Shown in pieces: positions 17,257 through 51,337 of a DNA stretch of 64,000 nt (position 1 is its first letter; each line of letters starts with the position of its first letter). The stretch is from Chrysomallon squamiferum (taxonomy: Eukaryota > Animalia > Mollusca). Where the stretch lies: positions 28,148,001 to 28,212,000 of the forward strand of contig CM022671.1 of NCBI GenBank assembly GCA_012295275.1, read 5' to 3'. The notes under the pieces were generated by a model. That model did no database searches and was not told the DNA's origin. It saw only the letters and a list, made by a program, of their open reading frames with translations. The position numbers were made by a program, and so were the translations under genes.

Positions 17257-20200
17257 TCATTTCCTTTCATACATAAAACTTCTTGATGGATCTGTAGGGA
17301 ACACTTTCTGGCACTGGGTCATCAGTCTCTTCAGACCCTGATATAAAACAAAAACAATAAATTATTTGTACTCTATTAACTTGTTTATATAGTTCAAACT
17401 GGTTTTACAAGTAAATTGTACATAATTTTAAAAATATGTTTAATACTGGACAGAACTTTAAATTGAAATGCTGATTTATTTCAAAATAAATGAATTTTTT
17501 AAATGCAAACTTAAAAAAAAAAAACAGTTGCTGATTATGAAGAATATACTGCAGAAAACTGTCAGATACATGACTGATTGTTTTTCAGAAGACTTTAACA
17601 AACCTGAATGTATTTTCTCTGTGTTTCATCATTGAGCACATGGGCTACGTATCTTGAAGAAATCTTCTCACGACCAGTACGGGCGTGTATTCCAACCATG
17701 GTAACACCAATTGGCCAAGGAGCATTGCCAATAGCCATTTCCAGATAAGCATCATTAGCCTGCAACAAATATGAATTTTTGAAGTTAATTTTTTTATTGC
17801 AAAGTATTTTGTATTTTAAAACAGTGTTCAAATAAGGTTTAAGAGTAATATAGCTATAACCATACATAAAACAATCTAAAACCACAATGTCAGTTGTGTG
17901 TCACTTGACAAATATTAATTCATTCCAAACCATGCCATTTGGATATAAAAAAAAAATCTAAATAATCATATTAACCTTCAAGTAATTTCGATCCATCAAG
18001 TGTTGTACAATCAGAACCAAACTCTCCAAAATGTCTTCATCAACATTCTGAAAAGCACAAAAAAAATCTAATTTCAAACACATCAAAATTAAATTGTGCA
18101 ACTAAAATATGGAATTCTGTAGCAATTATAAAAACTTATTAATTTTAATATGCATTAAACTTAGAATTAAAATTTAAAAAAAAAAAATTAAATGTGAATA
18201 AAACTTGTAAACATATTACCTGGACAAAATAGTATAAACAATAGTTCACGTGTTTAATTACAACTGCAATACTTAGTTTCCACACTATTGTAATGGTATA
18301 TTCATATTTTAATAGTAACGTTATATAAATTTTAAAAAAAACTGAACAAAAAGAATAATTTAAATAAAAATCTAAGTACCTTGTTTTTGAGCTTTCTGAA
18401 CAGAGGTTTAAGGTAGCTGACAGTCTGTGTGTGATGTGCACTCTGTGTTTTACCTTTTGTTGTACGTTTTTCTTCTTCTGGTCTTTCATTCAGTGCTTTT
18501 CCCCACCTTTTTATAACATACTACAAAACAACAAAATAATAGAGTAAAATGCACTTAGTTAATTCTTAAATATCAGTTTCTTTTCATAAATTTATACTTG
18601 AAGCAGAAGAGGCTACTATTTTGTGCATATTATATGTTATTGTTATAGCCTACAAGTCTTAGGCCTAAAATAAACAAAACACAAACTGTTTGTAATAATG
18701 TCATAATAAAAATAATAATTACCTTAAAGAAACTTAGCATAATTTCCTGATCACGACCTGGATCGCCTGCTCCAAGTTCTTTTCTCATTTGCTGTTTTTA
18801 AAAAAAATTAAAAATACCCGTCAGTACATATTCAAGATTTCGTACGTAAGTGTTTAATATATAGACGTTGTGAATTTAATGCATTTTTGACATATCACAA
18901 TTTTAAAAAAATGTTTGGTATATCAAACAGCGTAAGGATCTCAACTTAAAACAATTATATCAAATGCCAATATGGTGGTTTGAAATGTAATTACTGCATT
19001 GCCCAAATTTCACATTAGTTTAAAATAACTATTATTTTTTCCCTTATTAAAAGCTAGCGTGTGCCAGTTATTATTTACTTTTTTAAATTCTTCTACAATG
19101 TTACTTGAATAATACAAACATATAGATTTTCTTCTCAATTACTATTTTCTGAACATACCGGTATATCTTCCACTCTTGTACCATCATCTTTTATAGACAC
19201 ATCATTGGAAATTATCTGTTCTCCAGCTGACTTTATAATCTCATTCAGATACTGAAGATCTACCTGGTCCATGGCATCTTTGAAATCATTTCCACCACGA
19301 AGTGCCTACAAAGCAAGAACAATGTTTGACACAATGACATAAAATTACAAACACAGTTAAATGAGATGCATTTTACTATTTGTATACTACTCTTTTTTTC
19401 ATTTCTTTTTCAATTTCAATAAGATAAAATCTAATTAAGTTAAATTACAGAGCAAAATGAAAATAAAAGAAAATAACAGTTTTCATCCAATTAAAAAAAA
19501 CACCTATTCCTGCTACGTTTAAATCCAAAATAACTGTTAATAAAAACCAGTGAATGATATAAAATAAAGAAAGGTTTTTTGAATATTATAATATAATGTT
19601 TCCTCTATGCAGGAATATCCTGCCCTTGAGACCTAAATTCTCAAATCTGTCTATAATTATTGATGTCTGCAGGCATCAGTTTGTTCAGCAAATGACACTA
19701 TTTACTCATGAAAAAGAGACCATGTCAATTCTGCCCTTTTGAAGATATGAAAAAATGCCCCTTTTTCTACCTGTGCCTTGCCCTTTTTTCATTCTGGAGG
19801 AAACACAATAATATGATTATCATTACCCTCTGATCAGGTTCCTGAGTTTCAAGTTTTTTCAGTCGAAGATAACTATCAGCATCACTTTCACCAAACAGTC
19901 TGATAGGCTCCCCTCGTTCCCTTAACCGGCGTATCACCTGAAAGAGTTTTTAAATTATATTTAAAAGTTGAAAGAAAATGGAAATTTAAGCATAACTAAA
20001 AATGACAATATGACCACTGAATGATTATTAATTAATTGCAAAAATAAATTCAAGACATTTTAAAGATTTATTTTTTGTCTAAAGAAATGCGATTTCCTTT
20101 CAGTTTACATGAAGTATTATGAAAATTATAGATATTTCTACAAAGTGTTTTGGTGTATATATATAAGTTTTTTAAAAATGTACAGCTACACTGAAGTTTT

Positions 20201-21463
20201 TAAAGTTCCAACTAAAAACATGATGCTGTACATTTATAATTGACCATACCATTTAAAAAATTTTTATAACACAGTACTTCAGAATTTATACTTAATATGC
20301 AATTAAAATTTAGAATAATATGATAATAAAAAGCATGGATCTCCATCCTAAGAAAATTTAGCACCCACATCTTTTCTTGGAAGTAATTCTATTTTCTTTT
20401 CTTCAATCCTCTTAGCTTCTGTATCATTTTCTTTTGATTCCTGAAAAAAAAAAAGTATTGTATATTTTTAAACTCTTTATAAACAAAACAAACTATATAT
20501 ACTGAATATAAAGATTTTAGGAATGCCATCTATCCCATTTATTTGACATACATAGGAAATCACTGACACTTTAGATTCAAATAGCTATAATGGCTGTAAA
20601 CCAATTATTTTTCTTGGCATTTTAAACTGAAATGAAAGTAACTGGATTTGTTTTGCATTTTAAATAATGGGAGAATTTGGTGAAGATAATATAGAGTATA
20701 AAAATGTTCATTTTTAATGAAACAAATATCAAACAAAGGCTTCACATCGCTGGTGGCAATGTTACCATGCACTGATCAATTTTGTGAAGATATTATTACC
20801 GTTATTTCTACAATCTCTTCTGGTTCACTTCTGTGCCTTTTCCAATACTCTTCTTCTTGTTTGGCAGCTAAGTCACTTCTTTTAAAATACTTCTTATTTG
20901 GTAGCTTTGTAATAAATAAAATACTCCTATAAATCATTATTAAATGTTATATAATGACTGTTTTACATATACGATTTAAAGAGTTATAAAAATAACTGAG
21001 CTATTTCGGTTGTCTGACCATTTTAATATTTGTCTATATACTATTTTATTTAATAATAATAACACAGTACTTCATTCATTCTTAGTCTAATTATCATCAT
21101 CGTAACTCATTAACTGTTAACAATGTTATATTGCTGAATACTGGTCATTTGGTTATTCAGCTTATTCATTTTATTGTATCATTATCAACTATCAAGTAAT
21201 TCAACTAACTGAAGAGTGAAGTATTACTGTTAATAAGTATTAACTACAGACTATAGACTATAGTGAATAGTCTATAGACGTATAGTTACTATTAGTATTA
21301 TGATGATCAGATGAGATCTGAGTCATGGATCAAGATTATGTATTTCACGTATAAATTATAGTTAATAGCATATAAAGACCGAAAAGAACAAATAACTTAC
21401 CATAACATTGCTATCTTTCAACTGTCGCTTTTTTCTTTCTATTTCTGCTTTTAAAATGTCCAT
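17257..21463 (-). CDS. PRPF18: Pre-mRNA-splicing factor 18, spliced
   Basis: Ten exons, approx. 21401-21463, 20800-20904, 20369-20440, 19828-19937, 19160-19305, 18723-18791, 18380-18520, 17976-18047, 17624-17759, 17257-17337. N-terminus [18 protein letters not shown]4-like motif [17 protein letters not shown], and the invariant Prp18 loop [33 protein letters not shown]...[17 protein letters not shown]. Confidence 0.96.
19597..19805. mobile_element. Degenerate short non-autonomous DNA transposon (MITE-like) in PRP18 intron
   Basis: Terminal inverted repeats TGTTTCCTC...GAGGAAACA enclose about 200 bp that is more GC-rich than the intron and has repeated TGCCC(T)TTT motifs. No target-site duplication confirmed. 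Confidence 0.4.
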
Positions 21464-22195: not shown

Positions 22196-22511
22196 ATGGA
22201 TCTTATCATATGTTTATTATATGTGTTAATTATACCACCCCGATCGTGGACTCATGACGTAATCATCAGTACATACAACATATGGAATATTATGTTCAAC
22301 TGGGAATCGAGGAAATACCGGATTGCTGATATGGTAGCGTTTTTATATTTACTTTTTAAAGGGAATTGGAATCAATTATCTTAAGCAGACAAATGCTTCC
22401 AAAAAAGAAATTTAATGTAAAAATAATTCAGTTAAGATACGATGGTTCTACCGCATCAAAATAATTAAATTAAGATACTATGCCCCCACCCCCAAAAGGG
22501 AGATAACTACA

Positions 22512-22573
<62 letters not shown>

Positions 22574-25310
22574 GCACGCACACACACACACAAGGCTTTT
22601 GGTGTAATTAGAATTATGTAATACAGAGTTGACTTTTAAAGTAAGAATCAAGCAGTCTCTTGCATTTTGCACACACCATGGCTTTTTATACACTAACTGT
22701 AGGTCACTAGCTAGAACAAGAAACTGACCAATGAAAACACAGAGAAGGATTGATCCTGAAGCCAGTTATTTTAGTCAGGTGCTGTGCTTTCAGACTATAA
22801 CTCACTTTGTTCATCAGTTCTAAGCTTAAATACATCTTTATACATATCCCAATAATAATTTTGATCAAAGAAATATCTTGGCCTAATGGAAAGTTTGAAA
22901 CTGCAAACATTTTATAACTGAAAAAGTGGATGAAAAATTCATTGCATCATTTACATTTCAGATTCAAGAAACTAAATCAGATATCATAGCCATTCAGGAA
23001 GTTAGAATAAACAACAACAGAAAAGATTCCCAGATATCAGAACTGCAGAAATTGCTACCAGATTACAAATGGTCGGTTTACAAACCAGCAGACGTGATCT
23101 CAAAAACACTGGACCCTGCAATATCACCATGGGACAGAGAAGGTAGAATTGCAATTTATATTTTATGGTTATGTTTATTATATTTTTAAATTATTATTAC
23201 TGTTACATATTTATTTATTTCTCTTGATATCATTAATTAAATTGCAGATGCCAATCTCAAAATTGATTTTTACTGCTTTTAAAAGCAATTTCAACGTTCT
23301 TATAATTTTTGAAGTTTTGTAATTAAACATTATTTGAATGTTTTATAATTTATTATTACATCATAAATGTTTACCTTGTCTTTCACACACAAACACACAC
23401 ACACACACACACACAAAATCACAAACACATTTATATATATATATATATATATTTCTCTTTTTTCTGCAGGTGTTGGTGTGTTGAGTAAAAAACCTATTGT
23501 GAACTCATTCGTCCAGTATCTTGCTCCTCTTAATGGACCAGACACCAATAAACGAATTGCACTTCATGTTTCCCTTGATTTAGATGGACATTTAATTAAC
23601 ATAATAGTTTTACACATGTCGTACGACAGAGAGAGTCAGTGTAAACATGCAGCAGAAATCTACCAGTATATAACTTGTAAGTTTGGCTTTGCAAAATATT
23701 CATAAAAGAGTAACATGGAAATATATAAAATATGTTTAAACTGTCTCTATTTTTCACCAAAGGTACACTTTAATGTCGTTATAAAACATTTGGATAATGT
23801 CTATGATCTTTATGAATATACATATCTCTATCATATTATATAATATTATATTTTATAAGAAAAATATTACGTTATTCACTATACTGTATTTACAAATGCA
23901 AGAAAAATCTTTACATTTTTATTTTATTTATTTATTTATTTTGCAGCAAAGAAACTGAGTGATGTGATTATTCTGGGAGACATGAATATTTACAATGATT
24001 ATCCCTGGCCAGTAAGAATTTTCACCAGGAGTGAAATTAAGAGGAGTAGTCGTTGTTTTCCATTTGTTCAGAGATTCAGGAAGACAAAATTGACTATTTT
24101 TTATGATACTTGGCAGAATGAGAATAAAAGCAACATGGGACTCACATTTAGTAATATGGTAAGAAATGCCTTTTTTATATATATATATTTTTTTTCTTTA
24201 GTTAAGATTATCTCATTTTAAAAATGTCTAAAATTGCTTGCTTCGTGCATATTGTTGAATTTAATATTCATTTTGTGTAATTAATATCATTTTTATTCAT
24301 TTCACTACACAGATTGGATGGGATTAATATATATGTATTCTTTCAGGATACTTTTAACTTTGTAACTTTTAAGTATATAAATTCTAGTTAAATTCTATTA
24401 AAAAAATGAATGAAGTATTTAAAAATCAAACGGTTTTTAAATTAAGTTGTACTTTTTTCATTTTAATTTTTCATTTTAAATTCAGTTAAATGTATCAACA
24501 GTGGTGTTACATAAAAACAAAACATTCAAGCAGTTTTACTGTTTTACTAAAAATAAAATACCATACTATTCATTTAGCAAAAGTCTGATTTATATTTTTT
24601 TTTTTCAGCCTATTCCAGGACTGGAGAGTCGACCTGACAGGATTCTGGTTTCATATTCGTTCAAAACTATCAAAAGAACTCTTACTGGAAATGGAACAGT
24701 GTACAAAGAAAAATATTCAAGGACCATACAGATTAACAGAATAATGTCAGTAATGAGAAATTCTTTTTTCGTTTTCAGACAAAAATCAGGATATTCGTGT
24801 TTACACGACTGCGGTCCAAGGGGATCCTGTCGATGTGGGGTTTGTGTTGGAGGTCATTTAAATGGCTGTGAACTTCCCACTTGTAAAGAATGTGACCTCA
24901 CAGTATTCTGGAGGATTGTTTTATTTGCTGTTTTGTTTATAATGATGGCAGTGCTGACTCTGTATTCTGCACTTCAGGTGTTGATAATTTCAGCCAAATT
25001 TGACACAGAAATTCTGTTTTCCATCATGGGTTTCAAGTGTTGCCTTTTCAATCCTAAACTTTACATGTGCAAAAGAAATCAATTTAGGCTGTCCAGATAT
25101 TGCAAGATTTTCCGTTTTTTCAGTGTCCCTCCCATGTTTCTGTTTTTTGTTTCTGTGTACTCTTTATTTATTTTGTGTTTTGTAAGTGAGAAAGTATTTG
25201 CTGAAATGTTTGTGACTGTTAATGGAATTATGGAAGAAGAATTTTTCCCATCTGATCATCTGATGTATACTGTCCATCTTAGACTGAATCCAAAATACAT
25301 ATTGGAATGA
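22196..25310 (+). CDS. Uncharacterised endonuclease/exonuclease/phosphatase (EEP, DNase I-like fold) protein with signal peptide, Cys-rich motif and transmembrane segments
   Basis: Exons 22196-22333, 22962-23142, 23470-23676, 23947-24158, 24609-25310. EEP motifs appear in canonical order: TYNIWN, DIIAIQEV, GVGVLSKKP, LHMS, ILGDMN, PDRILV, PSDH. The N-terminus MDLIICLLYVLIIP is hydrophobic. Confidence 0.85.
22515..22591. repeat. Compound (CT)n(CA)n microsatellite
   Basis: Direct reading of the sequence. Confidence 0.95.
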
Positions 25311-25862: not shown

Positions 25863-27576
25863 TTATATTTTTGTATCAATCTCTTCCTTAAGTTTGCCAG
25901 CAGAGTGGGAATCACGTATCTGGCGTTTTTCGTCTTTTGACATGAAGAGAATTTCCACTTCCTCTAGACTTTTTTCTTTTGTTTCAGGTAACAATGCAAC
26001 AACAAATAACAAGCCAAGAGTTGATATCCCTGCAAACAAGTAGAATGTTCCTGAAAAATTAATAAAATATTTTATCAATAATCATATAACTAGATGAACG
26101 TCAACAACAACATCAACAATAAAAAGAGTAATAATAATTTTATAAACTTTTATTATTAATAATAATAACCATACATTGGGGCTAAAAAGCTACATAAACT
26201 TATAGAGATATTAAAAAATGAATGATACAGGTACCGGAATCTGTTTAAATAACTGATAATTCAGAAGCTTTGGCTCATTACAGCTGAATTTATTTTTCAC
26301 ATTAAGAAATCCTGCATTTAAGAATTTAGAAATAAAGAAAGCAAACACTATCATTAATGTTCCTAACTTTGAATTATAATAAATAATGGTAAAAACCAAA
26401 AACATTAATTTTATTATTTTACTTAGACAATATCTAAGGTTACATTAGTTTTTTGTTTTTTTTTATTAATATAACTTTTTCATGATTGTATGAAATTAAT
26501 TTCAAAACAAAAATTACAATAGTTTTGTAGTGAAATAAAATTTAATGCTTACCATACGGAGTAACTTTTTCCGTTAAAGTTAGGAACGTCATGGATACGA
26601 TTAAATTTGTGATCCAAAGAGTGGCAGTGGCAATGGAGACGCATACTCCCCGAGCCCACAGTGGGTAGATTTCTGCATTGATTGTCCAAGGCATTGGTCC
26701 TAAACCTACAACAGAAAGTTGATAATGCATTCCCGAGAACAGTACTATTAAAGGAACAATGTGTTTAAAAAATTCCAAGAAAAGTAAGAAAGAAAATATC
26801 TTTTTCAATTCAAGTGTTACTTTTATATATATATATATATATAACTTTGAACAGAAATCAAATTTAAAAAAAAAAGGGAACGTTTTTCGATAATTTAAAG
26901 TATACAGTTTGTACACCTGATTTTTAAATATATTTTTTATTATTATTATTTAAAAAAAAAAAAAAAAAAAAAAATATTATAAACTGAACTTTTTATTTAT
27001 TTATTTATTTTATTTTTTTAATTTATTTTATTTATTATTATTTGTATTTTAATTATTATTATTGTTATTATTATTATTTATTTATTTTTATTTTATTTTA
27101 TTTAATTTTAATTTTATTTATTTATTTAAATATTTTATTTATTATTATTTAATTTTTTTTCTCTCTCTCGTATCTTTACAAAATGAAAAAAAAAAAATGA
27201 TGTCTAGAATCGTGAAAATTGTTTTAAATTCAGCTTTATGAACCTGGAGCGAATGCCAGAACAAACAGAGTCATTCCCAAGACAGGAATCCAGGTATACT
27301 GATTTGGGCAGTAACCGTACGACCATTTATATATCGAAGATTCTGTAGAAGAATTGCATTTCCCTACCAGGGACGTCATCTCGTTGCGCGCGGGCAAACA
27401 CGTGGAGTGCGCTTCGCCGTCGTAGCAAAACCCACATCCTTTATCTTTGATACACGATTCACAAAAGCTGCAATGCATCAAAACAGATTTTTGTAATTTA
27501 ATATGATTTCAAACATTAAACAGAGAAATGCATCTGTCTAATAATAATTGCAACTATGCAATAAAATAATAATTTA

Positions 27577-27610
<34 letters not shown>

Positions 27611-28311
27611 TCAGATGGATATTCCTTCATTTAAAAAATCGCGCCGAACAAAAATAAAAATGATAAAAAGAGGTAGCCTCTTTATTGTTATCTGCGGATA
27701 TTAGTTTTTTTTTAACTAGACATTTAAATAAATCGTACTCATATTGCTGATGACATCGAGTAATCCGAGTTCCATTGTCGTACGATTCCATTTTAGTCTT
27801 GTTTATAACAGGCGAGTTGATCACTGAGAGCTGGAATCCTATAGCCACCACAATCAGAGACAGTACAACACCTGAAAACATATACATATACATACATATA
27901 TACAGACACCCAGACACATACACACACATACACACACGTGTATATAGTATAATCGAACATTCCATTATAATCATTTTTAAAACAGCGATTTTACAGGCAG
28001 ATTCTTTTCTTCCCTCTTCTCTGTGACTTGCTTCGTCTGTCTTTGCATAATTCACTGTAGCATATAATACTAAACATTTACATTATTCAGTTTTGTAGTG
28101 TATTTCTTTATATAATGTTTTTTCAAATATATGTTATAAGCATAAATATCCTAATATGATTCGTTTATTTGGATTTCATCCTCTAAATGTATTTTTGTTT
28201 TCGGATAAGTACTGGATGAAGTTCGTAATAATTATAACAAATGCTTTCGTCCTGAACTAGTATGTAATTAAATTGCATTCGATAAGTCATACTGTTTAGA
28301 AAACTTATTCT

Positions 28312-28347
<36 letters not shown>

Positions 28348-29017
28348 ACTTCGAGGCGAGTCGAAACCAAAAAAGGACCAATCAGAACGTCCAAGACATT
28401 ATAATTGAAAGTTATTATTAGGATTTCTGGTTTCTGCGCACGTGACCACATTTATAAGAAGCATGCCGACATTCTTACCTCCGATACTAAAACAGAGAGA
28501 CAGCTTCCTTCCGAATCGTTCGACAGCCCATAGACCAAAAAATGTGGCCAGAACCAAAACGGCATTAGGAATACACACCAACCAAATGGCATGTCTCACA
28601 GGAAATCCCGCCATTTTTAATATGGTACCGCTGTAGTAACTGTAAGAGATTAATAATAATAATAAGAAGAAGAAGAATAGGAAGAAGAAGAAGAAGCAGA
28701 AGAAGAAAATAAAACAGTTGTAAAGCAGTTGAATATATTTTAAGTTACTGATTCTTTTCTACGTACAGTAAACAAAACTCAAAGTGTATTTTAGAAAAAA
28801 AAAAGAAATATAACATGGGAAAACATACACGTATTAATTAATAGAACTTGAAAAATATTAATTACTACAATAGTCCTTTTTTTTTTTCTTTTCGGATTTA
28901 TATTGGTGAAGCTTGTAAACTCACTGAGCTCGAATAAATACAGTTAGCTAACGTAACCCAAAACCGTTCTAGCGTTAGTTTTTCCAAACGTCTTATAATT
29001 GCATTTCTCATGTTCAG

Positions 29018-29083
<66 letters not shown>

Positions 29084-29548
29084 AATAAATAATGATTTAA
29101 AATATATTATGTTTATTCTAAATTAGAGACAAACAAATAATAATGTCAATAGACTTACAAAGACTTATGTAATCTAACTCAGATAAATATAATACTAATT
29201 TTCCCTTGACTTGCAAATTATAATCCTTATATTGTTTACTATGCTATATTTAGGATAGCTAATACTCACATAATGCTATTGATTCCACTGAACTGTGCAA
29301 AAACACACAACCCGCATCCTATGAACAGTGCTTTCCTGACGTAAGCTGTCGTAAATATTTGTGTTACCACTCCACTCTTTGTTTGTCGTTCTTCAGTGTT
29401 AGAAATAAAATAAAGTTTATTTATTTATTTATTTATTTTGTTGTTGTTATTTTTGTTTTTGTTGTTATTGCTGGAGTTGTTATGCATACAAACACGTTCA
29501 CCACACAGATGACACCCTCATATTTAAAACATTACGTCTGTCGTAAAA

Positions 29549-29579
<31 letters not shown>

Positions 29580-32500
29580 GGCTGTCTGGCAGCGCTATTC
29601 TACAGTACATACGAAACAGAAAACGGTGGGTAATATTTCATAAATAACAAAGAATATTAAGTGCATTCTAATTAACGTCAGGTCGTTGAACGGTCGGTCA
29701 GAATGCGTAACCCGGTCGTAAGTGGGTTCAAGATAAGTGGGTTAGATCTCGATTGAATTTTTGATGGATGATGAGATCGATAAACGTAGAAGCCCACTGT
29801 GAAGGTTTACATTCTAGACATGACTCCAAACTATCAAAAACCCTGGTTTGGGGAATCGCTTATAAAATTCGTTTTCTTAATTATTAATAACCTTAATGCG
29901 ATGTCTGTTGATATTTTTTTTTTTTTTTTTTTTATGTAACTATTATAAAATCAAAATCTATTAACTTGTTAATGTTAAATTATGCCGAGTGTCTTAAAAC
30001 AATTATTCATTTATTATATTTTTACACACACACACACATACTGAGCATATTCACTCTTAATGAAACTGAATAGCTACCCATATCTGATTTCACTGTTTCA
30101 ATGATCGAAGACAGCGACATTTCGACTTCGTCTGCTCTGCTAACACGTTCTAGAACAGCACGTGCTTCCTCCTGGCGTCCCTTGATAACGAGCCACCGCG
30201 GACTTTCAGGAAGAAACACGAAGGAGATGAACTGAATTAAAGCTGGCAGAGCTCCCAGACCCAACATGTATCTGAAATGGGTTTAAATGTTAACATTGAT
30301 TTTTGGAAACAGTTATCGACGTCGTTCTTCTTTCTCTTATTATTATTATTATTATTATTATTATCATCATCATCATCATTAGTGGTAGTAGTAACAGTTA
30401 CAGTAATATTTTGATTTAGGTGTATATTACTTCATACATTATGTACATATAAGCACTTACACGTTTATACACGCCAAACAAATGTGCATCCATACTGATA
30501 TAGACAGTCAAACAGATGCAGACAGATAAAACTCGGACACACCCATGCACCCACACTTATACACACATATATATACACAGACCACCTCTATCTGTTGATA
30601 TATGTTAATATATATACACAGGGCCGGCGTCAAGCGATGGCATGCAGAAGGAGGGGTGTCGAACGGGCGGTGGCACCGGACATCCAAATTGGGGGGCATC
30701 CAATCAGAGAAAAGAACTTAATAAATTTGATTAATTTATATATAAATCAAATAAAGTGTTTAGTTTATGTTTCATCTGTGTTTACATATTCAAATTATCT
30801 TCCTTTCTCATAGAATTTCTCAGTATTAGGCCTTATACTTGAGTCTTTGGGGCATACAATCAAGGAGTTGGCCCCGGCCTCACCAGACTGCACGTCACTG
30901 CGCCTTAGGCAAGGTTAGATTCCGGCAAAATTAAGACTAGAATAAACAAACATAAATACAGACATTAATGATGAACCAGCAGCTTAATGGACAGTTGAAC
31001 AGTCACTCAATACGAATATACCTGAAACCCAGTTTAGCTGAGGGATAAATGTAGTCATTTAAATATCCCACACAGGCCATTTCTTTCCTTGTTTATACAT
31101 TAAAATAAGGAGTTACCATTTTGGTTTCCGCGGCAAACTGAAGGTTTCGTATACGCGTGGTTCTACGGAAACACTCATAGCCTATAAAAACACACGTCCT
31201 GATGGTTTCGTGTACGCGTGATTTTCACTCTTATTTTGCTTGTTCCGGTCAGCCTGGCATTTCGGATTTGTTTCTGTATGGAATAAACGAGGATAAAAAA
31301 AAAAAAAAAAAAACCTAAATAAAGCTGAAATTTATTTATTTATTTTTACAGAACTGTTGTTGATTTGGAAAAAACTGCGCCCCCTGAAATAGTGCCCTAG
31401 GTGGCTGCCTATATTGTATCGCCGGCCCTGTATATATTTATATATATATATATATATATCCGTGCGGACATATTTCCATACATATGTCGCATGATCGTCC
31501 TTCTAGAGTTCCATGAAATACAGTGAAACTGGTTTATCAAAGCGTGCTAAATACTATACGGAGACGCTTATCAAAGATCCAAGGCTACTAAGTCTTAACA
31601 TTAGGGCCGATTCTGAACGACCTTTCTATTTCATCATTATGCAAATAACGTACGAGTGACATTTAATAACCGTTACAGTTAAACTGTGCTATGGTATCTT
31701 CAAGCGTATAATGTTTAATTTATTCGCGTAAACACGTATCGTTACATGCATGCACATATGCACACACTGGAAAACGCAAAAGATGCATCATGTTTCCCTG
31801 TTAATGTAAGCATATTTCTTAAGTACCTCCATCCCGTCGTCTTGTTTTCACTCAAGAGTCCAGCCATGATACTGGATAGCAAAATTCCGATACATATAAA
31901 CAGCTGATTCAACGTTACTAGACGTCCGCGAATGTCAGGGGGAGATGACTCTGCAATGTACACTGGAACCATCATCGAGGTGATACCTAATTTAAATGTT
32001 CAATAATATTTTGAAAATCAAAAAAAAAAAATATATATATATATATATCAAATGCATTCTTAAAATAAAATTTAATATTTCTAAAACATTTATATTCAAA
32101 AACATACTGAAAACAAAAAGTTCAGTTGGCTCCATACTATATTAAATTAGTATCGTAACCTTACAAAATTTCTTTAAAAAAAAACAAAAAAAAAACGAAA
32201 AACAGAACAAGGAAATAAAGAAAAAAAAAACGTTATTATTGTTAATAGCATAGAAATTAAAAAAAAAGGTATGGGGTGACTTACCTACAGCAACGCCTAC
32301 AACCACTCGTCCCACGAACAACACCTCTTTGGTCGGTGCCACCGCCATGACAACAGATCCAATGATGAATATAACATTGGAGATCATAATCGTTTTCTTG
32401 CGTCCAAGAAGATCTCCAATGTGACCAGAGCACAGAGAGGCCACGGCGGCGGCTGCAATGGTTCCGCTCACGATCAGTTCGTGCCAGATCGACTGAAGGT

Positions 32501-32621
32501 TGAAATAAGGCTCGATTAACAGCATTGAACCGGAGACGATGCCGGTGTCGTAGCCAAATAGCAGACCTCCTAACGTGGCACATCCTGCCAGTATATAAAC
32601 AAACGTACGTTGAACGGCCAT
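25863..32621 (-). CDS. SLC2A13: Proton myo-inositol cotransporter-like sugar porter (MFS), divergent paralog A
   Basis: Nine exons, approx. 32285-32621, 31828-31986, 30078-30271, 29270-29390, 28479-28639, 27738-27871, 27244-27468, 26552-26705, 25863-26050. Motifs GGLLFGYDTG, DLLGRKK, PVYIAESSP, PESPRWL, ERFGRK, the HMIT-type Cys-rich loop (CESCIKDKGCGFCY...YCP), PMPWTINAEIYPLWARG and LPETK. The exon 3 donor is ambiguous (30078 or 30042). Confidence 0.9.
29020..29092. repeat. (TAA)n/(TAAA)n microsatellite
   Basis: Direct reading of the sequence. Confidence 0.9.
30619..31430. mobile_element. Non-autonomous DNA transposon (MITE, hAT-like termini) in sugar-porter A intron 2
   Basis: Perfect 11-bp terminal inverted repeats CAGGGCCGGCG (30619-30629) / CGCCGGCCCTG (31420-31430), 812 bp. 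Flanks TATATACA / TATATATT match 6 of 8, a possible decayed 8-bp target duplication. No transposase ORF. Confidence 0.75.
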
Positions 32622-33990
32622 TTCAAAGTTTCTAAAGTCTGTTCTGCTGCAGTAGTAAAATTCTGAGACCAACAATAGTAATAACTGCTATCAGTTTTAA
32701 TTGTGGATCAGTTTTCAGTCCTCCAGTGACCCGGCTTGGCCAGCGTCTTAATTAGACGTGCTCAAATGTGTGCAGTGTGTGAGAACTTGCAACACAGTAC
32801 GACGAAGTCAGCTGAGGTTATTATACTGACCGACTTCGAAGTAGAGGTGGGTCGAGACAGATACTTTACCTCAGACCGAGGAACACTGGGATCGTATCCA
32901 GCTTGGTCCTCATACCCAGAAATAATTAACAGTATTAGTATATTACTCAGTGATAGTTAAGAATTGTAGCTGAGTAAGGTATATTTTGTTACGCACAACA
33001 AAGAATTGTACAAATGTGAGACGCGAGTATCAGATCCTAAAAAAACATCCAACATTTTAAAAATAAGTGAATCTGTGTCGCTAATCGGGGCTAAGTTGAA
33101 TCTCTGATCATAGCATAATCATATACATTTTATTATTGCCGTATATATAACTTTTTATCCTGTGATAACTGCGAAATGCAGTATAATATGATTTATTTTC
33201 CATTGATAATTATTAATTATAACGTAATGTATTGCGGATAAATATTTTTTGATATTCATTAATTTCTGTCATAAGCAAGACCTTTTCTATGCATCAGCTG
33301 GACTCTTCTGATATGCATTGTGTATGTGCACGTGTGTGTATGTTCGTGTGTGTATATGTATGTATGTATGGATGGATGAACATATGCATTTATGTAGGTA
33401 TTGTATATATATATACGTTTGTATGGATGTAATTGTATGTACGTATATATATAAAATATATATATATATATGGATGGATGCATGTATGTATGTATGTATG
33501 AATGTATATACGCCCGTTTATTACATCAACGAAATTGTATAGATTATATGATATGTGCTATATTTGTGTTTGAAGCATTTTAGATGTTTTAAAAATAAAA
33601 CGTAAATGCAAAATAATAAATGGACATATTAAAAGATTTATCACATTAATACATTTTCAGAATATTTTATTTTACATAACAATTTATAAAAGAACTAGAA
33701 TAAAATATCTGTAAATATAATTATAACAATTAACTTATTATTCCAAAAGAGCAACATATAAAGATAAAAACATCATATATATACACACACACACACATAC
33801 ACAAGCAATCACGCACACTCAAACCAAAGACACAGACCTTGTGTACACACAGAAATAACGTTTAAATCTTGATTATATTCATGATCTAGTATTTTATTAA
33901 CAACGACCGTAAAATTACCACAAGTGTATGAATTCTTTGTTCATGTTATTTATGTTACTATTGATCTAATGTGATATACCCAACGCTTTA

Positions 33991-34857
33991 TCACATTTTA
34001 GTCACTTCCACAGATTTAGTATAATCGTTTTCACTTGGAATTTCTATTTCGTATACCCCTATGTTTTCCTGCAGTTGTTCCCGCTCTTTCTTTGACATAA
34101 ACAGTAATTGCACTTCCTCCAGAGTTTTGTTCTTAGTCTCTGGCAAGAAAATTATTGTAAAGATCATCCCAGCGAAACAGATGCTTGCAAATAACCAAAA
34201 TGTACCTGGAATTGTAATGAAAGAAATTAATATCCACTGTTTGCAAAGATTAAGTAACGGAAAAATACTACTCAGTTTATGTGATACAGGATGATACAGA
34301 GATTTAAAAAAAAGCTGATGTATTGTTTGTTTAAAACAGATTTATAATTTTTGTCGTTATTTTGCTTTGATTAAGTCCATAATTAAATTCTGAATAGAAC
34401 TGACTGTACTGTTATTAACTTCTGAGCTTTGTTAATAAAGATTCAGAAAGGTAATTAGTGCATTTTCTTTTTTTGTTTTTTCTTTTCTTAAATTAAACAA
34501 TATTCTATTATTTATTTTATTTTAAATTAAACAATATTCTATTACTTTTTTCTTTTCTTTTTGTTTAAACTAAATATAATAATCATTTCTTTTTTTTTTT
34601 CCATATATGGGCTATATATTTCATCAGCCCGTTAAGTATACATAATATGTGTGTGAAAGTGTAATATTTACCATATGTCGTAATTGTTTCAGTTAGTGTC
34701 AGAAAGGTGAAGGATACGACAAGATTGAAAATCCAGTTGACGGCGGTTGTCATAGCAATACATGTACTTCGTGCCCACAGAGGGAATATTTCAGAGTTTA
34801 TTGTCCATGGCATTGGCCCCAGACCTTGAATAAAGTAACGATAATCAGTAATTGTAA

Positions 34858-34906
<49 letters not shown>

Positions 34907-35886
34907 TGCTACTACATATTAAATACAACATCTATTTTTAACAAATGAATTAGAATAAGATTATTAACGAACAGAAATAAAAATTATAAGATATAATTTA
35001 ATAAAAAAATAAAGAAGCATACAATTAAATTTCAGCAACATCAAACTAATTAATGTCGTAAAACTAATCACATAGTAATTTAAAGAATAGTAACAAACAA
35101 AACAAGTTAAGAATATGTACCTGGTGCAAACGAAACAACGAACATGGCCAGCCCCAAAACAGCCATCCACGAATAGTCTGTGGGGCAGTAACCTTGTGCC
35201 CAGTGCATTCCGGAAGAGGAAACACCGACAGCGTTACAGCGGCCATATTCAGCTCTTTCCTCTTTCTTATCCATTTGAGCTGGTAAGCACGTTCCGTTGG
35301 CGATGTCATCGTAGCAAAATCCACACCGACTGTCTCTGATGCAGTCGTTGCAGATGCTGAAAACAGTTACATAAATGTTTAGGTTTTCAAAGAATAAACT
35401 AAACATTTGTTGAAAAATAACATCATGTGCGTTTTAAAAATACAATTTTATTTCAAAACTTTTCACCGCCAATAAGCTATTACCATTATTTTGCTAATAT
35501 CTGATGTTCCTAAATATGTGAAGATATAAAGAAATAATTGCATGTGTATCTGATTCATCCAGATAAATTTTATGAACTAAGTTAATTATTTTTGTGGATG
35601 TTTTCATTTTAATTTTTTGGCCAGTGTTTAGTTTTTGTTTGTATTTGATTCATTTATTAATTGTGAACTTCATTTAAAATGTTATTAGATTAACTTTATT
35701 TAATCATTTAAATAAATGAAAGGATAAATAAATACTGACGAATATTTGACGTAGCAGCTGTCAGTGATGACTGTGTCGTTTCCATCGTACGTTTCTGTGA
35801 TGTTGGTGTTGATTTGTGGCGAATTGTTTGCTGATAACTGAAATCCGATCGCCAAAATGCCAAGGGAAATAACCACTCCTACGGAG

Positions 35887-35941
<55 letters not shown>

Positions 35942-37633
35942 GAAATTTTAAAGTGATTTGAAACTGAATTACCTTTCAAATACATATTGAATATTGCAGT
36001 TTTATATTTATTATTATTACTTAAAATTATTATTATTAATTAATTTCAATTTACATTAATATCCATTGCATTAATACTTGAAAACAATGCAGAATTTTAC
36101 TTACTGAAAGGACCTTTTACAGAAAATAGAATATCCTAAAATAATTATAGTATATTAATCATTTGCTTTATGTGGTAAACTATTAAACGAGTTCAAACAT
36201 CTATTTAGATGTTAGGACAGAGATGGGATTTTACCTGCAAAACTAATCACAATCAATAATTTACGACCAAATCTCTCCACAGCCCAAAGACCGATGAAAG
36301 TCGACAAGAAGTTTATTGTGTCAGGAACCATCACCAACCAAATTGCATATCTAACCGGAAATCCCGCCATTTTTAGAATAGATGCGCTGTAATATCTGCA
36401 AAAGTCAGTACTTTCCGAAAAGTTCTAATAATTACGGTTATAATTATCACTAAAAACAATGCCAAAACAATTATTTTTCGATGACATAATCTTGTGTTCT
36501 TATCAGATTCAAAAAACCATGTTAGATCTAACATTTAATTGTACGGCCTTTTGACTAGTACGATATAAAACCAAATATACTAATTAAAGTTACAGGTAAC
36601 TCATTGCAAACGCGTTGATCTACATTAAATGGTATACTGTAATGTGGAATACGTCAAGGTTATTTTGATACGCAAATACTGGTTGTTAATCGACACTGAA
36701 CTTTATGATTGTCGCGATGTAAGTGCCTAAAGTGCTCATTTTCACGTCTAGGGGGTGAGTAAATACAAATTGTAACAATAATTTATTATAAATTCATTGG
36801 ATAAATAGCAATCAACAAGTGTGCAGGTTCAGTTATTTATTTATTTACAAACATTTTGTATTTTGTAATAATATGCAAGAAATAAAAGCAGTTAAATTAT
36901 TTAAAATACGGAATCAGCTGAATCCTAATTAAAGACGGAATCTGTCGGAGAGAATCTAATTACGTTGATATGCCGTTATTTATATTAAACAAGTTATGTT
37001 ATTTATATTAAACAAATGCGCCATTGGTAACACAGAAAACACTGCATAATGTCGGTACCAAAAACAATGTAGAAAAGTATCTTGCCAAACGCTTATCGAA
37101 GCAAGGTCAAAGTTTCAATGTTCTCTCTCGAAACCTCCGTGTTCATCAAAGGAACCACCTGGTTCAGTAGATGCCTGCTTATCTTTGCTTCTTCTCAGAC
37201 CCCGATGTCCGTATATATTACATTCTTGCGGACGTTAATGAAAACCATGGAATGAAAGAATGAAAAGACGGAAAATTTCAAAACTATGTTTCTTTCTCAC
37301 ACAAAAAAAAAACCTCCATATTTTGGACGATAATTTACTTAATTTAGAAATTTAAAAACTACCTTAAAGAGTTCGTCATCGCGTACTTTCCTGTAAAAAG
37401 ATGTTACTGATGGTCAAACAGAACTTTAATTATCTGCAATTATCAATAATATATGCAACAGAAATATATCTACTGAAACACAGTTTCATAGATATGCGGG
37501 TTTATGTCTTCGTCGCAAAGGTAACTAATTACGATTATTTTCAAAGCTGAATTCGAATTTATTGTCCGCAAATTCGTCCTTTATTTAATTGGATTTGATA
37601 CCATGAGCGACTTATTCAAGCACACTATTCATT

Positions 37634-37677
<44 letters not shown>

Positions 37678-40190
37678 TGTATGTATATATATATTTATAC
37701 ACATACATATTTGCTGATTCTTATAAGAGTTAATAGATCTGTTTTTCTTACTTACATGACAGTGTTTATTCCACAGAGCTGCTGGAAAAGCTGAAGTCCA
37801 GCTCCAACAAAGAGAGCTTTCATCACGTATGGAGTACTACACACTTTACCCAGAACGAAACCTAAAAAAACAGATTTTAAAAATACATTTTCACAAGTCA
37901 AGAATATACGCTTACAAACACGAAGTCTGGATTAGTTGTTTTCGTTTTTATTTATTGAATTGACATTTTTACCATGTTTGGACTGTTTATCTTGATCGAT
38001 GCCTTTCTGTATATCTTCAAGTTCTTTGCTGACGTCATCATGTCCTCTAATTCTCACAAGTACAGCACGAGCATCTGTACCTCGTCCTTTGCTCAGAAGC
38101 CAGCGCGGACTTTCAGGAAGAAAGAAGAATCCGAAGAATTGTACCATCCCAGGCAAACCGGCTAATCCAAGCATATACCTGTAAAAAAAAAAAAAAAAAA
38201 AAAAAAACACAATACAAACACGTTTAATATAATTATTCTGTAAGAATGAAACATTTAAAGGGAAAACAAAAAGAGTTAAACAGTGTATAATATTAATATT
38301 ACAATCTAGAAAATAAGTATTTTTAAATTATAAGTACTAATGGTAGACTATATTAAGCAGTAACAGATAAACAATTTCCATCTAGCTGTTTATAGTGTAG
38401 CATAAGCGGATAAAAAAAAACCCACAAAAAACCTACAAAATTCACGTGTTGCTATCACTGTGATAAATCTAATTTTAAAATGAAACGATTTGCATTACAT
38501 AGAAAAGAAGAAGAACACGAAGAAAAATAACAGCCAAAACAAAACAAAACAAAAATTCGATTGCCAAAAGAATATAAAGGCAAATCAAGGGGCACAAATG
38601 TGTCCCAGCCCAATGGATCCGGGTACACAGAATCACTGCATTACCTCCAGCCTGTGTCCTTTATCTCGCTGAACGCACCAGCAATCAACGCGGAAAGGAT
38701 GATGCCTATTGTTATAAACAACTGGTTCAAGGTCACCAGACGACCTCTGATAGGAGTTGGGGCGACTTCAGCCACATACACGGGAACAGTCATGGAAGCA
38801 AATCCTGAAAATAAAATATTTTGAGTCTAAATTTAACACTTCTAAGATAGTTAATGACTTAATGATAAATTTAATTCTTAATTTATGATCTACGGTTTAT
38901 TGCTGTTGAAGTATACTAGATTTAACATTCTAACATTTTAATTTTGACGTACTATAATCAACGATGGAAATGGGTTTTAGGAATCAGAACAGGGTTTAAA
39001 AAGTTCATGAGGCCCAGGCTGGGAAAGACTGGACTGTTAGACATTGTAAGTCCCTCCGTGAAAATCTTTTTGTAATCTGAAAATGCAATTTGTTATTGCG
39101 GGCTGATAATAGAAAAAGAATTAACTAATCTATAACGTGCCCTTATCTAAAGACTGTCGTAACAGTTTCCAATCAGGAAGTTCGTATACACATTTATTAG
39201 CTCACTGAACACAAAATGTGTTTTTGATTTCCATTAAGATGCCTTTATATGTTGTTTAAAAGAAATGAGTGAAATATTGCAAGAATGACTTTTTATTTCC
39301 TAGACAAAGATTAGCTAATAAACGTGTTTGACTCTGCACTAGTACAGAAATAGGACATAAACCGGAAGCTAAAAACTAGGAGAGCGCCCACCCCCCGTTT
39401 CCATCAATGACTGTTTTTCTTGTTAAACTGTCTGACGGTGTGCTTACCTGACCTTCTCAGAATAATCAAGTAATCTCCCACAGTTATATCAGTTTTTCAT
39501 CGAAAAATATTGTAATTTGTCAAAAAAAGTGTTTTAATAAATCAAGCAACCCTATAAGATTTGCCGTTTCCGCCAATAACTTGTCTGTATTCGATTTTGA
39601 GTGACAGTGCTTCAAAGCATTGTATTTTTATTAGACAGCGAACAGTAAAATTATAGATCACTGCTAAGGGTTTATTCAAAGTACTTTGGGCAAAAATGGA
39701 ACATAACATGTTATTACATCGGAAAGGACCTCGAGGTAGCAATCTAGTCAAAAGAGTGGACTAGATGGTGTATTGCGGAACTGTAATCTAGACAAACTGT
39801 ATCAAATGCAGTTTTTTTTTTTATAAAGATGTTTTGGTCACTTTTACATGATAAAGAGATTTAAGTATACGCTTTAATTCTTTCGGCGAATTTAATTATA
39901 TAATTCGCAGATTATCGTTTTTATTTAATATCTATTTATAAAATAAGCTTCATGCTTTATAAAATATAAACAAGTATTAATATTTTATTATTAAACTATT
40001 ATTATTTTCTTCTTTTTTCCATACATGTTGTCTTACAGTAGTTTTTATTTGTTTTTATTTTAAATATATCACTGTATCAATAAAAACTTACCTTCAATAA
40101 ATATTTTCAAACATTATTTTATTAAAAGATTTGAAAATTTCTACTTAAAGTAATATTGAAAAACAATAAAACAAAATAAAAAACAGTAAA

Positions 40191-40228
<38 letters not shown>

Positions 40229-40886
40229 TAATAATAATAATAACAAAAAAATAAATAAAAATAATAAAAAAATAATAAAATAATAAATAAATAGTAGTAA
40301 CAGCAGCAGTACTAATAGTAGTACTACTACTACTAATAATAATAATAACAGCAATAAAAATAATAATAAATAAAACAAGCAAATAAAAATTAAATGAATG
40401 AATGAATTAATAAAGTCAACACATTTATTTTCTGAAATCTGTCATTTCCAATAACAGTTCTCTGTACTTACCTATACCTATACCGACAACAATTCTTCCT
40501 ACAAGCAGAATTTCCTTGGATGGCGACGCTCCCATTAAAGCAGCTCCTCCTGTAAAAACAATACTAGCAAACATGATTGTTTTCTTTCGTCCAAAGAAAT
40601 CTGTACTGAAGCCAGCTACAAGAGAAAACAATGCAGCCGCACCAATAGTGCCACTGACGATGATCTCTGTCCATATTGTATTGAGGTTGAAGTACGGTTT
40701 TATCAACAGCATTGCTCCTGAGACTATTCCCGTGTCGTATCCGAACAGCAGGCCACCCAGAGTAGCGAAACATGACAGAAAATACACAAATTTCGTATTT
40801 TCGCATTTTGGAGAAGCTGCACTGTCAGTATCGGCCGTTATGTCGACACTGGTTCCGTTTTTACCTTGGTGTTTTTTCTCATCCAT
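33991..40886 (-). CDS. SLC2A13: Proton myo-inositol cotransporter-like sugar porter (MFS), canonical paralog B
   Basis: Nine exons, approx. 40471-40886, 38645-38803, 37973-38178, 37755-37861, 36234-36395, 35740-35879, 35121-35356, 34672-34824, 33991-34205, with the same intron positions as paralog A. Motifs GGLLFGYDTGIVSG, PESPRWL, LQLFQQLCGINTVIYYS, Cys-rich loop, PMPWTINSEIFPLWARS, NWIFN and LPETK. Ends ...VEVTKM*. Confidence 0.93.
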
Positions 40887-42013
40887 TTCTGGTTCCTTTG
40901 CACTTCGCTATCATTCGTGAATGTTCTGTAACATTCTATAAATAAATTTTAAAAAAACGAGGAAAAGAATTTTTTTTTAAAAAGAAAGGAAATTGAAAAA
41001 AATAAGGAATCAGACAGATGTTCTCAGAAACAGTTTTTGCAAGACATGATTTATCACCGGGAACTCAGCACGCCATGGTGATTACACAAAAGATCCACTG
41101 AACATCATGTTGATCAAACCGACGTCATCTGTGATAAAACCGCTGCAGTCTTACGTGCTTATTTCGAGAGCTAGATTCTCTGTATCTGGTAAGATACGGC
41201 AGGAGTGGCTGGATGACCAAAGGTGCCATCGTCGTCAGGTAACGATGCTGAGTTGGCTGTTCGCATTATTTGCGTAGACGATAATGCGTGGTTGTTGCTC
41301 AGAGAGAAATGAATTACAAGTGTGCGGAGATATATCGGCCAGAATGATTATACGTTTTACCTTCGTTCTTGCTTGCTTTCTCTTGGTATATGTGTGCCGA
41401 AGACTGATATTGAAAATCATCCATTGCATAATATGAATATAATGCGAGTAAATATCTCAGTGTGAATATGTAGTGATGAGAGAGAAAAAGGGAGACAGTG
41501 ATTGTGTTTATGTGTGCGTTTCAAATACGAAAGAAAACTTTATATTTTCATTAATATCATTTTATTCTATAATTTGATTAAGTTTTTAATGTGTGAATGT
41601 GAAAAATAATAATAATAAAATTAAAGAATATAATATATGCCATTATACAACGATAATACTTTTATGAGAAATATTAAAAGTAACTTTTTTTTATTTATTT
41701 CACAAAAATTGTGCTTTTTTCATTTTAAAAACTATTTGCTTTGAGAGTATTTAATTCTGAAAAAAAAAATAAAAAAAATACAACAACCCACACAAATCAA
41801 ATTGTTATCCATTATGAAAGTTTTCGGTGATATAGCGTTCAGCATGGTTCAGCGCAATAAGCAACACGAGATAATGAATTCCAGCTTACCAAGCAGCTCA
41901 CACATTTTATAATCTGTGTAAACGTCAAAGAGATGGAGATTTTAATTCAGTGCTGGGAGGGGTTTCCTGAAGCTATGCAATAGTTCAATCTAGCGTTTAT
42001 AATATGTTGTCGA

Positions 42014-50396: not shown

Positions 50397-50580
50397 TATC
50401 AAAATGCGAAAAAAAAATTTACAGAATAAAAAATCCTAAAGTATAGTTTCTAAACAATTTGCATGTAGTAACCTGTAAACACGAATAGACTGGCCACTGC
50501 ATAAATATTTCGCTTTGGACTACACGCGGTTTTATTTTTGTTTTATCATGTGATTTTTTATCACATCACATGCATTTATT
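50397..50580. promoter_or_regulatory. Very short bidirectional promoter ZMYND10 / fucosidase
   Basis: Only 184 bp separate the two start codons. Forkhead motif TGTAAACA at 50474-50481. Confidence 0.65.
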
Positions 50581-51337
50581 ATGGCTGCTTTAGTCAAATA
50601 TTGTTTTTTCATTTGTTTCTTAGCTTTATTCGTGGACTGCAAAAAATATAAACCGAACTGGCCATCGATAGATTCTAGGCCGCTTCCTTCTTGGTACGAT
50701 GAAGCAAAATTAGGCATTTTCATTCACTGGGGAGTATTTTCAGTGCCAAGTTATTCGTCAGAATGGTTTTGGTGGGGTTGGCAAGGCCAACATTTGCCGG
50801 CAATCGTCAGTTTTATGGAACAAAACTACAGACCTGATTTCACATATGCCGATTTTGCGGCACAGTTTACAGCAGAATTTTACGATCCTGTAGAATGGGC
50901 AGAACTTTTTGCGGGATCGGGAGCAGAGTGTGTACATTAAAAATATATAATTATATTGCATCAAACTAAATGTACATTAATTCATGTAATTTATCTCAGT
51001 ACATAACTCAGTAACTGCATTTTACGTTATTATAATCAAATTTTTATTTATATCTTTACGTAGCATTCACAATTATTCTAAAACATCAAAGATTAATTTC
51101 TATTATCTTTGTTAAAAATAATTTCATTTATTTTATTCTTCATGTCATATTCCACCTTCAGGATTGTTGTATAATACAGTTTTTTTTCCCCCTGCTAGAT
51201 ACATTGTATTTGTCAGCAAACATCATGAAGGCTTTTGTAACTGGGCCACTAATGTATCATTCAACTGGAATTCTGTGGATTATGGTCCAAAAAGAGATAT
51301 TGTTGGTTTGTTAACAATTTAATATTTTTTAGTTTTG

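Follow-up and report, generated by a model that had tools for sequence, protein, structure and literature searches.

Among enzymes of the EEP superfamily, the CCR4/nocturnin/PDE12/Angel group and TDP2 are intracellular and carry neither a signal peptide nor membrane helices, while the membrane part of Cwh43/PGAP2IP is a large N-terminal domain. In SMPD2, N15 and E49 lie at the Mg2+ site, H272 acts as the base and W17 and W51 contact lipid, as described in PMC10682184. The sphingomyelinase of B. cereus bears a membrane-binding hairpin with the apex residues W284/F285 located 11-12 residues before the catalytic H296 (PMC9710629), and EEPs that remove phosphocholine or phosphoethanolamine from sugars exist as well (PMC10704324). 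Outside this superfamily, the tandem transmembrane insertion of the GPI-GalNAc transferase PGAP4 has been proposed to bring the active site to the glycolipid (PMC5785973). Here we analyze an EEP gene in a stretch of 64,000 nucleotides (the window). Its product belongs to a conserved, uncharacterized EEP family, and prediction and conservation together give good support to an unusual membrane architecture in which the catalytic domain is split.

Gene structure and catalytic domain

The window is AT-rich, intron-rich animal DNA, likely of a mollusc in view of the closest homologue described below. The EEP gene occupies positions 22196-25310 of the forward strand and comprises five exons with GT-AG borders (Table 1), the junctions of which were placed by splice signals and ungapped alignment to homologues; the spliced product has 479 residues and zero internal stops. 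It contains the complete EEP motif series, i.e. N28, E59, H155, D187/N189, D256 and S461-D462-H463, with only 16 residues following H463. As the catalytic residues are 90-100% conserved in a 46-row alignment, the gene product does not appear to be a pseudo-enzyme; it is a member of the EEP superfamily with an intact catalytic residue set and predicted activity. PF03372 scored 50-70 bits, against a gathering cut-off of 24.5, in all eight full-length homologues scanned; the exons of the window, scanned one by one, stayed below that cut-off. The closest homologue, the gastropod protein P0001 (274 of 470 aligned residues identical, 58%), shares all key residues, and several arginines are invariant (R41, R63, R136, R255 and R258 in P0001). 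In the window protein, the D131...R135 loop aligns with the D-K loop of sphingomyelinases, and C212 is likely the disulfide partner of C164.

D256 and S461 are 205 residues apart. A retained intron or a fused neighboring gene could in principle have produced such a distance in a protein with an ordinary gap, and a few database models (P0043, P0057 and P0215) indeed lack part of the insert. However, the insert is an open frame within a single exon and is kept from choanoflagellates to molluscs, and a newer Nematostella model (P0192), clustered with P0057, carries it in full. In an RNA-library check with exon 5 and its 3' flank as target (four runs of one study), one unbroken contig bridged 24609-25415, insert included, and a second spanned 24623-25228; neither has joints, although contigs of this kind do not prove transcription. 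One of the other runs reached the first 126 bases only and one yielded no contig. We therefore consider an artefact of the gene model highly improbable. The three shortened models are likely exon-skipping annotation errors, but may represent a soluble splice form.

These results bear out an earlier note on this DNA, which had described a signal-like N-terminus and a complete EEP series, about 200 residues between the D-x-I strand and SDH, and an insert made up of an 8-Cys motif, a hydrophobic helix, a basic Cys-containing loop and a second helix. The catalytic residues are intact after splicing and the N-terminus is signal-like by prediction; all insert parts were located in exon 5, and splicing-out of the insert, raised there as a counter-argument, is contradicted by the contig that crosses it.

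Table 1. Exons and predicted elements of the EEP gene (positions in the window)
Feature	Position	Strand	Content and basis
Exon 1	22196..22333	+	Predicted signal-like N-terminus, first EEP strand (N28/W30), W36-x-x-R39 helix
Signal-peptide-like N-terminus (predicted)	22196-22252	+	About residues 1-19, in exon 1
Exon 2	22962..23142	+	Metal-binding E59 (22998-23000), then conserved R61
Exon 3	23470..23676	+	D131...R135 loop, H155, C164
Exon 4	23947..24158	+	D187-x-N189 motif, C212, TFSNM motif
Exon 5	24609..25310	+	R254-P-D256-R257 strand, entire insert, SDH motif, last strand, stop
Helix A	24696..24776	+	27 residues, second half amphipathic, invariant Y278 and R290; DSSP of models, conservation, hydrophobic moment
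8-Cys module	24798..24893	+	Residues 310-341; likely disulfide-bonded
Predicted transmembrane helix 1	24897..24995	+	Hydropathy, models
Basic Cys-rich loop	24996..25130	+	Predicted cytosolic; charge
Predicted transmembrane helix 2	25131..25196	+	Hydropathy, models
Return arm, SDH and last beta-strand	25197..25286	+	Amphipathic helix B, conserved E456/E457; S461-D462-H463 at 25251-25259

The neighboring genes in the window, namely sugar transporters, a PRP4-like gene and a fucosidase, gave no functional hint for the EEP gene. A multi-exon sugar transporter gene (25863-32687, reverse strand; PF00083), which presumably resembles the myo-inositol transporter SLC2A13 and has a Cys-rich loop exon at 27236-27508, lies tail-to-tail with the EEP gene at a distance of about 550 bases, followed by a second, tandem paralogue (33991-40907, reverse strand; PF00083). 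A gene with a PRP4-like motif (about 18600-20950, reverse strand; PF08799), which probably encodes the splicing factor PRP18, is divergent from the EEP gene, and the first exon of an alpha-L-fucosidase gene (PF01120) is found at 50554-50940 on the forward strand.

Conservation and predicted topology of the insert

Hydropathy within the insert peaks at about residues 346-374 and 418-440. The 45-residue loop between the two helices contains nine K/R, two D/E and four Cys, including a Cys-Cys pair as a possible S-acylation site. The eight Cys columns of the module have a letter in 45-46 of the 46 alignment rows, and in any one column at most a single such row departs from Cys. All 37 full-length rows combine a loop net charge of +4 to +10 with net negative outer flanks, and in all 37 the arm leading from helix 2 to the catalytic His has 21 residues without indels. 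Further insert residues are invariant (Y279, R291 and E454 in P0001), and helix A shows a modestly elevated amphipathic moment (0.34 versus 0.26-0.28 in control helices). Exactly two hydrophobic insert segments were found in 34 of the 40 homologues that have both motifs (55 examined).

An AlphaFold model of P0001 (pLDDT 88.7, pTM 0.85) comprises a helix at 277-303, the Cys module, helices at 345-377 and 419-440, short helices at 442-456 and a strand at 463-470. Superposed on complete EEP domains of known structure, this model aligns from about residue 21 to residues 469-473 (Z 20.5-26.2, rmsd 2.4-4.4); the latter coincide with the C-termini of those domains, so that the post-insert strand falls in the sandwich. 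Modeled on its own, exon 5 of the window gene folds likewise (pLDDT 87.8), with the two hydrophobic helices packed as an antiparallel hairpin. Foldseek with the exon-5 model returned no match to the insert fold at E 0.001, and a wider structure search yielded generic two-helix hairpins only (best Z 8.0). For the 8-Cys module, which was folded only as part of the longer models, no known fold or family matched, with Pfam, Atlas and PDB profile searches giving nothing.

A hydrophobic stretch just before strand 1, resembling a signal sequence, is present in 34 of 38 homologues with an N-terminal extension; amoebozoan members have a basic N-terminus and a signal anchor, as in type II proteins. Based on the signal-like N-terminus, the two hydrophobic helices, the basic loop and the fixed 21-residue arm, we predict that the enzyme is lumenal or exposed at the surface, with its active site close to the bilayer. 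The distribution of N-glycosylation sequons lends this location no support, as sequons in the catalytic part are rarer than in shuffles (31 versus 63). This depletion would instead suit an inverted or monotopic arrangement, with a cytosolic catalytic domain as in SMPD2, a zinc-binding Cys module and a hairpin that dips into the membrane without crossing it, as would the short amoebozoan hairpins, with one hydrophobic window in several rows, and the h-region of only about 11 residues in the window protein. Yet the frequency of signal-like N-termini, the strongly basic loop with acidic flanks in every full-length row and the length of the bilaterian loop (40-60 residues) speak against it, and we regard such an arrangement as quite unlikely.

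We favor, somewhat above even, a reading in which the insert crosses the membrane twice and keeps the active site against the bilayer on its lumenal or extracellular side, serving an enzyme that likely cuts a phosphoester in a lipid head group or a lipid-linked glycan. With the predicted signal peptide, the first 270 residues would enter the lumen together with helix A and the Cys module; transmembrane helix 1 would then run inward, the basic loop would be cytosolic and helix 2 would return. Only 21 residues beyond helix 2, D462/H463 and the last strand would complete the beta-sandwich and the Mg2+ site, and this short distance between the membrane exit and the catalytic His would keep the site near the bilayer. 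By analogy to EEP chemistry, E59 and N28 would bind Mg2+, and H463 would serve as the general base acting on the attacking water. Helix A probably runs along the membrane surface. The substrate would itself be membrane-bound, either the head group of a sphingo- or phosphonolipid, or a phosphate, phosphoethanolamine or phosphonate on a glycolipid or GPI.

Distribution, variants and origin of the family

Exon 5 alone matched 21 longer proteins (E 2e-86 to 4e-23), which align through the insert, all carry PF03372 and have no specific name. Profile searches gave 52 and 113 matches, and a representative search 110 at E 1e-30 or better. Named members come from molluscs, annelids, the brachiopod Lingula, echinoderms, hemichordates and cnidarians, with an orthologue in Nematostella; further members, identified among 30 proteins whose source was looked up, belong to two choanoflagellates, Salpingoeca urceolata and Codosiga hollandica, and to the amoebozoans Cavostelium, Phalansterium and Luapelamoeba. 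Among the named matches, none was from a chordate, arthropod, nematode, fungus or land plant, in word-based searches of limited reach in which many matches are unnamed. These results define an old eukaryotic EEP family of Amoebozoa, choanoflagellates and many invertebrate phyla, and the lack of named matches in vertebrates, insects, nematodes and fungi may be why it is unstudied. The main texts of an open library contained no description of an insert-bearing family and no mention of six member gene ids, although supplements could mention members.

Both the R-x-D-R and the SDH patterns occur in 177 of 282 proteins fetched, a set with many fragments or near-duplicates. The gap between the two patterns is 24-50 residues in 52 of the 177 and 91-497 in 125, with none between, and 97 of the 125 long-gap rows have exactly two hydrophobic segments. 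Three of these 125 (P0272, P0274 and P0280) are pattern artefacts in ordinary bacterial EEPs. One insert-bearing protein, P0122 (738 residues), has a second large insertion before the D-x-I strand, SH3-like by eye.

The family occurs in three variants: helix A, Cys module and hairpin in animals and choanoflagellates; helix A and a short hairpin, without Cys module, in Amoebozoa; and helix A and Cys module, without hairpin, in some microbial eukaryotes. The last variant is real at the level of DNA: P0095, which has a hydrophobic anchor at its N-terminus, is encoded by an unbroken ORF that adjoins a poly(A) polymerase gene on a contig from a eukaryotic metagenome. The intronless hairpin-less gene (positions 546-1604 of contig L001) lies in a GC-rich microbial eukaryote among PhyH, poly(A) polymerase and alpha/beta-hydrolase genes. 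The hairpin is thus dispensable in some microbial eukaryotes; what stays constant are the two helices on either side of it.

The earlier note had also held that the D-x-I strand and SDH are normally tens of residues apart, that an even number of helices should be found and that the protein could not be assigned to a named family. All of this agrees with our data, given the gap of 24-50 residues in related EEPs lacking the insert, the two hydrophobic segments in most homologues and their antiparallel packing in the model, and the lack of a characterized family with such a layout in Pfam, NCBIfam, PDB or the literature; no NCBIfam model reached its cut-off in ten proteins. Its proposal that a membrane hairpin returns the chain to the lumenal side stands as a predicted topology, but does not extend to the microbial eukaryotes without hairpin, and the lipid or GPI substrate that it suggested is a hypothesis.

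A tree was built from the N-terminal catalytic part alone with 60 of 88 eligible rows; the 28 omitted were for the most part near-duplicates or close animal rows and included P0043. In this tree, 26 of the 27 rows with the insert share one branch (SH-aLRT 86). A single clade of all 27 was not rejected (p-AU 0.85), in a tree in which long branches are common. A single origin of the insert inside a wider secretory eukaryotic clade is therefore plausible. A wider set of unnamed, likewise uncharacterized and mostly secretory-looking EEPs (P0092, P0109, P0120, P0121, P0123, P0129, P0132 and others) shares the R-P-D-R motif but has a gap of normal length; it includes proteins of Capsaspora, Chrysophaeum and Ceratiomyxa, and in some of its members SDH is followed by a single C-terminal membrane helix. 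On viral contigs, 33 candidate stretches were checked and none proved to be a relative.

Candidate substrates and comparison with known systems

The top structural matches of the P0001 model, bacterial sugar phosphatases, TDP2, nocturnin and SMPD2, differ by no more than about 2 Z, and Foldseek ranked the deadenylase CNOT6L first; structural scores do not choose among substrates. We lean toward a lipid-linked phosphoester because of the predicted near-bilayer site, the hairpin loop of bacterial sphingomyelinases and the design of PGAP4, and this slight preference falls in about equal parts on the head groups of sphingo/phosphonolipids and on glycolipid or GPI with phospho-substituents. If this is correct, the family would provide an enzyme for the turnover of phosphoesters or phosphonolipids in invertebrate membranes. 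A narrower version seems improbable, namely that the family is a phospholipase C dedicated to CAEP, a phosphonosphingolipid, and to related head groups of invertebrates, located at the surface or in the lumen and built by insertion of a transmembrane hairpin into the loop that bears the membrane-binding hairpin in bacterial sphingomyelinases. In molluscs and cnidarians, CAEP is the predominant sphingolipid (PMC9174665), and it was not detected in crabs (PMC8708635). Its occurrence matches the named animal members, which include no arthropod or chordate, only loosely, and leaves the choanoflagellate and amoebozoan members unexplained.

With the same topology, the hairpin could be a mere tether of an anchored ecto- or lumenal phosphatase or phosphodiesterase for soluble or protein-linked substrates, such as sugar phosphates on glycoproteins, nucleotides, NADP or cyclic phosphates. 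Of the top five structural rows, two belong to the mannosyl-6-phosphatase BT3783 (3mpr, 4c1r), with nocturnin tied, several invariant arginines would suit an anionic substrate, and hairpin-less members exist, as do secretory relatives without the insert, some with a plain C-terminal anchor after SDH. However, an anchor would not need to sit in an active-site loop, nor would it need an indel-free 21-residue arm or the invariant Y279, R291 and E454, and we hold this reading, including the substrates it implies, to be possible but clearly the less likely one. A membrane-bound extracellular or lumenal nuclease of the DNase I/TDP2 type, with DNA, RNA or their end adducts as substrates, appears unlikely to about the same degree as the inverted topology. 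CNOT6L and TDP2 are near the top in Foldseek, TDP2 gives the lowest rmsd (2.4-2.6) and there are weak NCBIfam matches to xth, MnuA and ExeM/NucH, but the latter fall far below their cut-offs, and a polynucleotide would probably be obstructed, as the site lies about 20 residues from the bilayer with a long helix and the Cys module at its sides.

The bacterial EEP phosphatases BT3783 (3MPR/4C1R), 3G6S, 4RUW and 3TEB are the best matches by structure (Z 23.5-26.2) and by profile (E 4e-7 to 6e-3), and 3G6S shares the W-x-x-R helix with the window protein; identity is about 20%, and no such insert was matched in them. BT3783 (PMC4978465) itself, at Z 24.4-25.6, is tied with TDP2, nocturnin and SMPD2. 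The CCR4/nocturnin/PDE12/Angel and TDP2 groups, despite good fold scores, give profile E values of 0.02 or worse and differ by the signal-like N-terminus and the hairpin found here. The Cwh43/PGAP2IP domain (PF23226), an EEP domain tied to GPI lipid remodeling (PMC10704324), reached at most 23.6 bits in eight proteins against a cut-off of 27; 9 of 76 rows match it weakly, exon 3 of the window gene gave a weak sub-cut-off match, and precomputed tables enter it for P0027 and P0055.

SMPD2 (PDB 8J2F) shares the EEP fold with the P0001 model (Z 23.9, rmsd 2.8 over 242 residues), and SMPD2 and yeast Isc1 also resemble the present protein in the N, E, H, D, D, H catalytic set, a Trp two residues after the first Asn and two membrane helices. 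In SMPD2/Isc1, however, these helices are C-terminal to a finished domain (aligned range ending at 284; PMC10682184), whereas here they precede SDH, and a predicted signal peptide and a Cys module are features of the present protein but not of SMPD2/Isc1. SMPD2 W17 is kept, by motif spacing, in 38 of 41 rows, while W51, two positions after the metal-binding Glu, is replaced by Arg in 44 of 45. For the D111-K116 loop of SMPD2, compared via the alignment with L. ivanovii SmcL, the invariant Asp aligns and an Arg, at a spacing one residue shorter, takes the place of the Lys; the D-K loop of SmcL corresponds to D132...R136 of P0001.

Bacterial sphingomyelinases C (B. cereus, L. ivanovii SmcL) are likewise secreted EEPs with a membrane-binding element just before the catalytic His, and since the B. 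cereus hairpin precedes H296 in this manner, the insert occupies the equivalent loop. Their element is a short aromatic beta-hairpin, in contrast to the 200-residue helical insert with two predicted transmembrane helices, and the overall similarity is weak (E 8e-4, Z 20.8). The present protein thus lacks some defining features of each of the SMPD2/Isc1, bacterial sphingomyelinase C, Cwh43/PGAP2IP and CCR4/TDP2 groups. A catalytic domain that is predicted to be complete only after two membrane crossings was encountered in no other EEP here, but is known from PGAP4, in which a lumenal catalytic fold is likewise split by a tandem transmembrane insertion (PMC5785973). PGAP4 has a GT-A glycosyltransferase fold, and we regard it as an architectural precedent and analogue of the EEP family described here rather than as a homologue.
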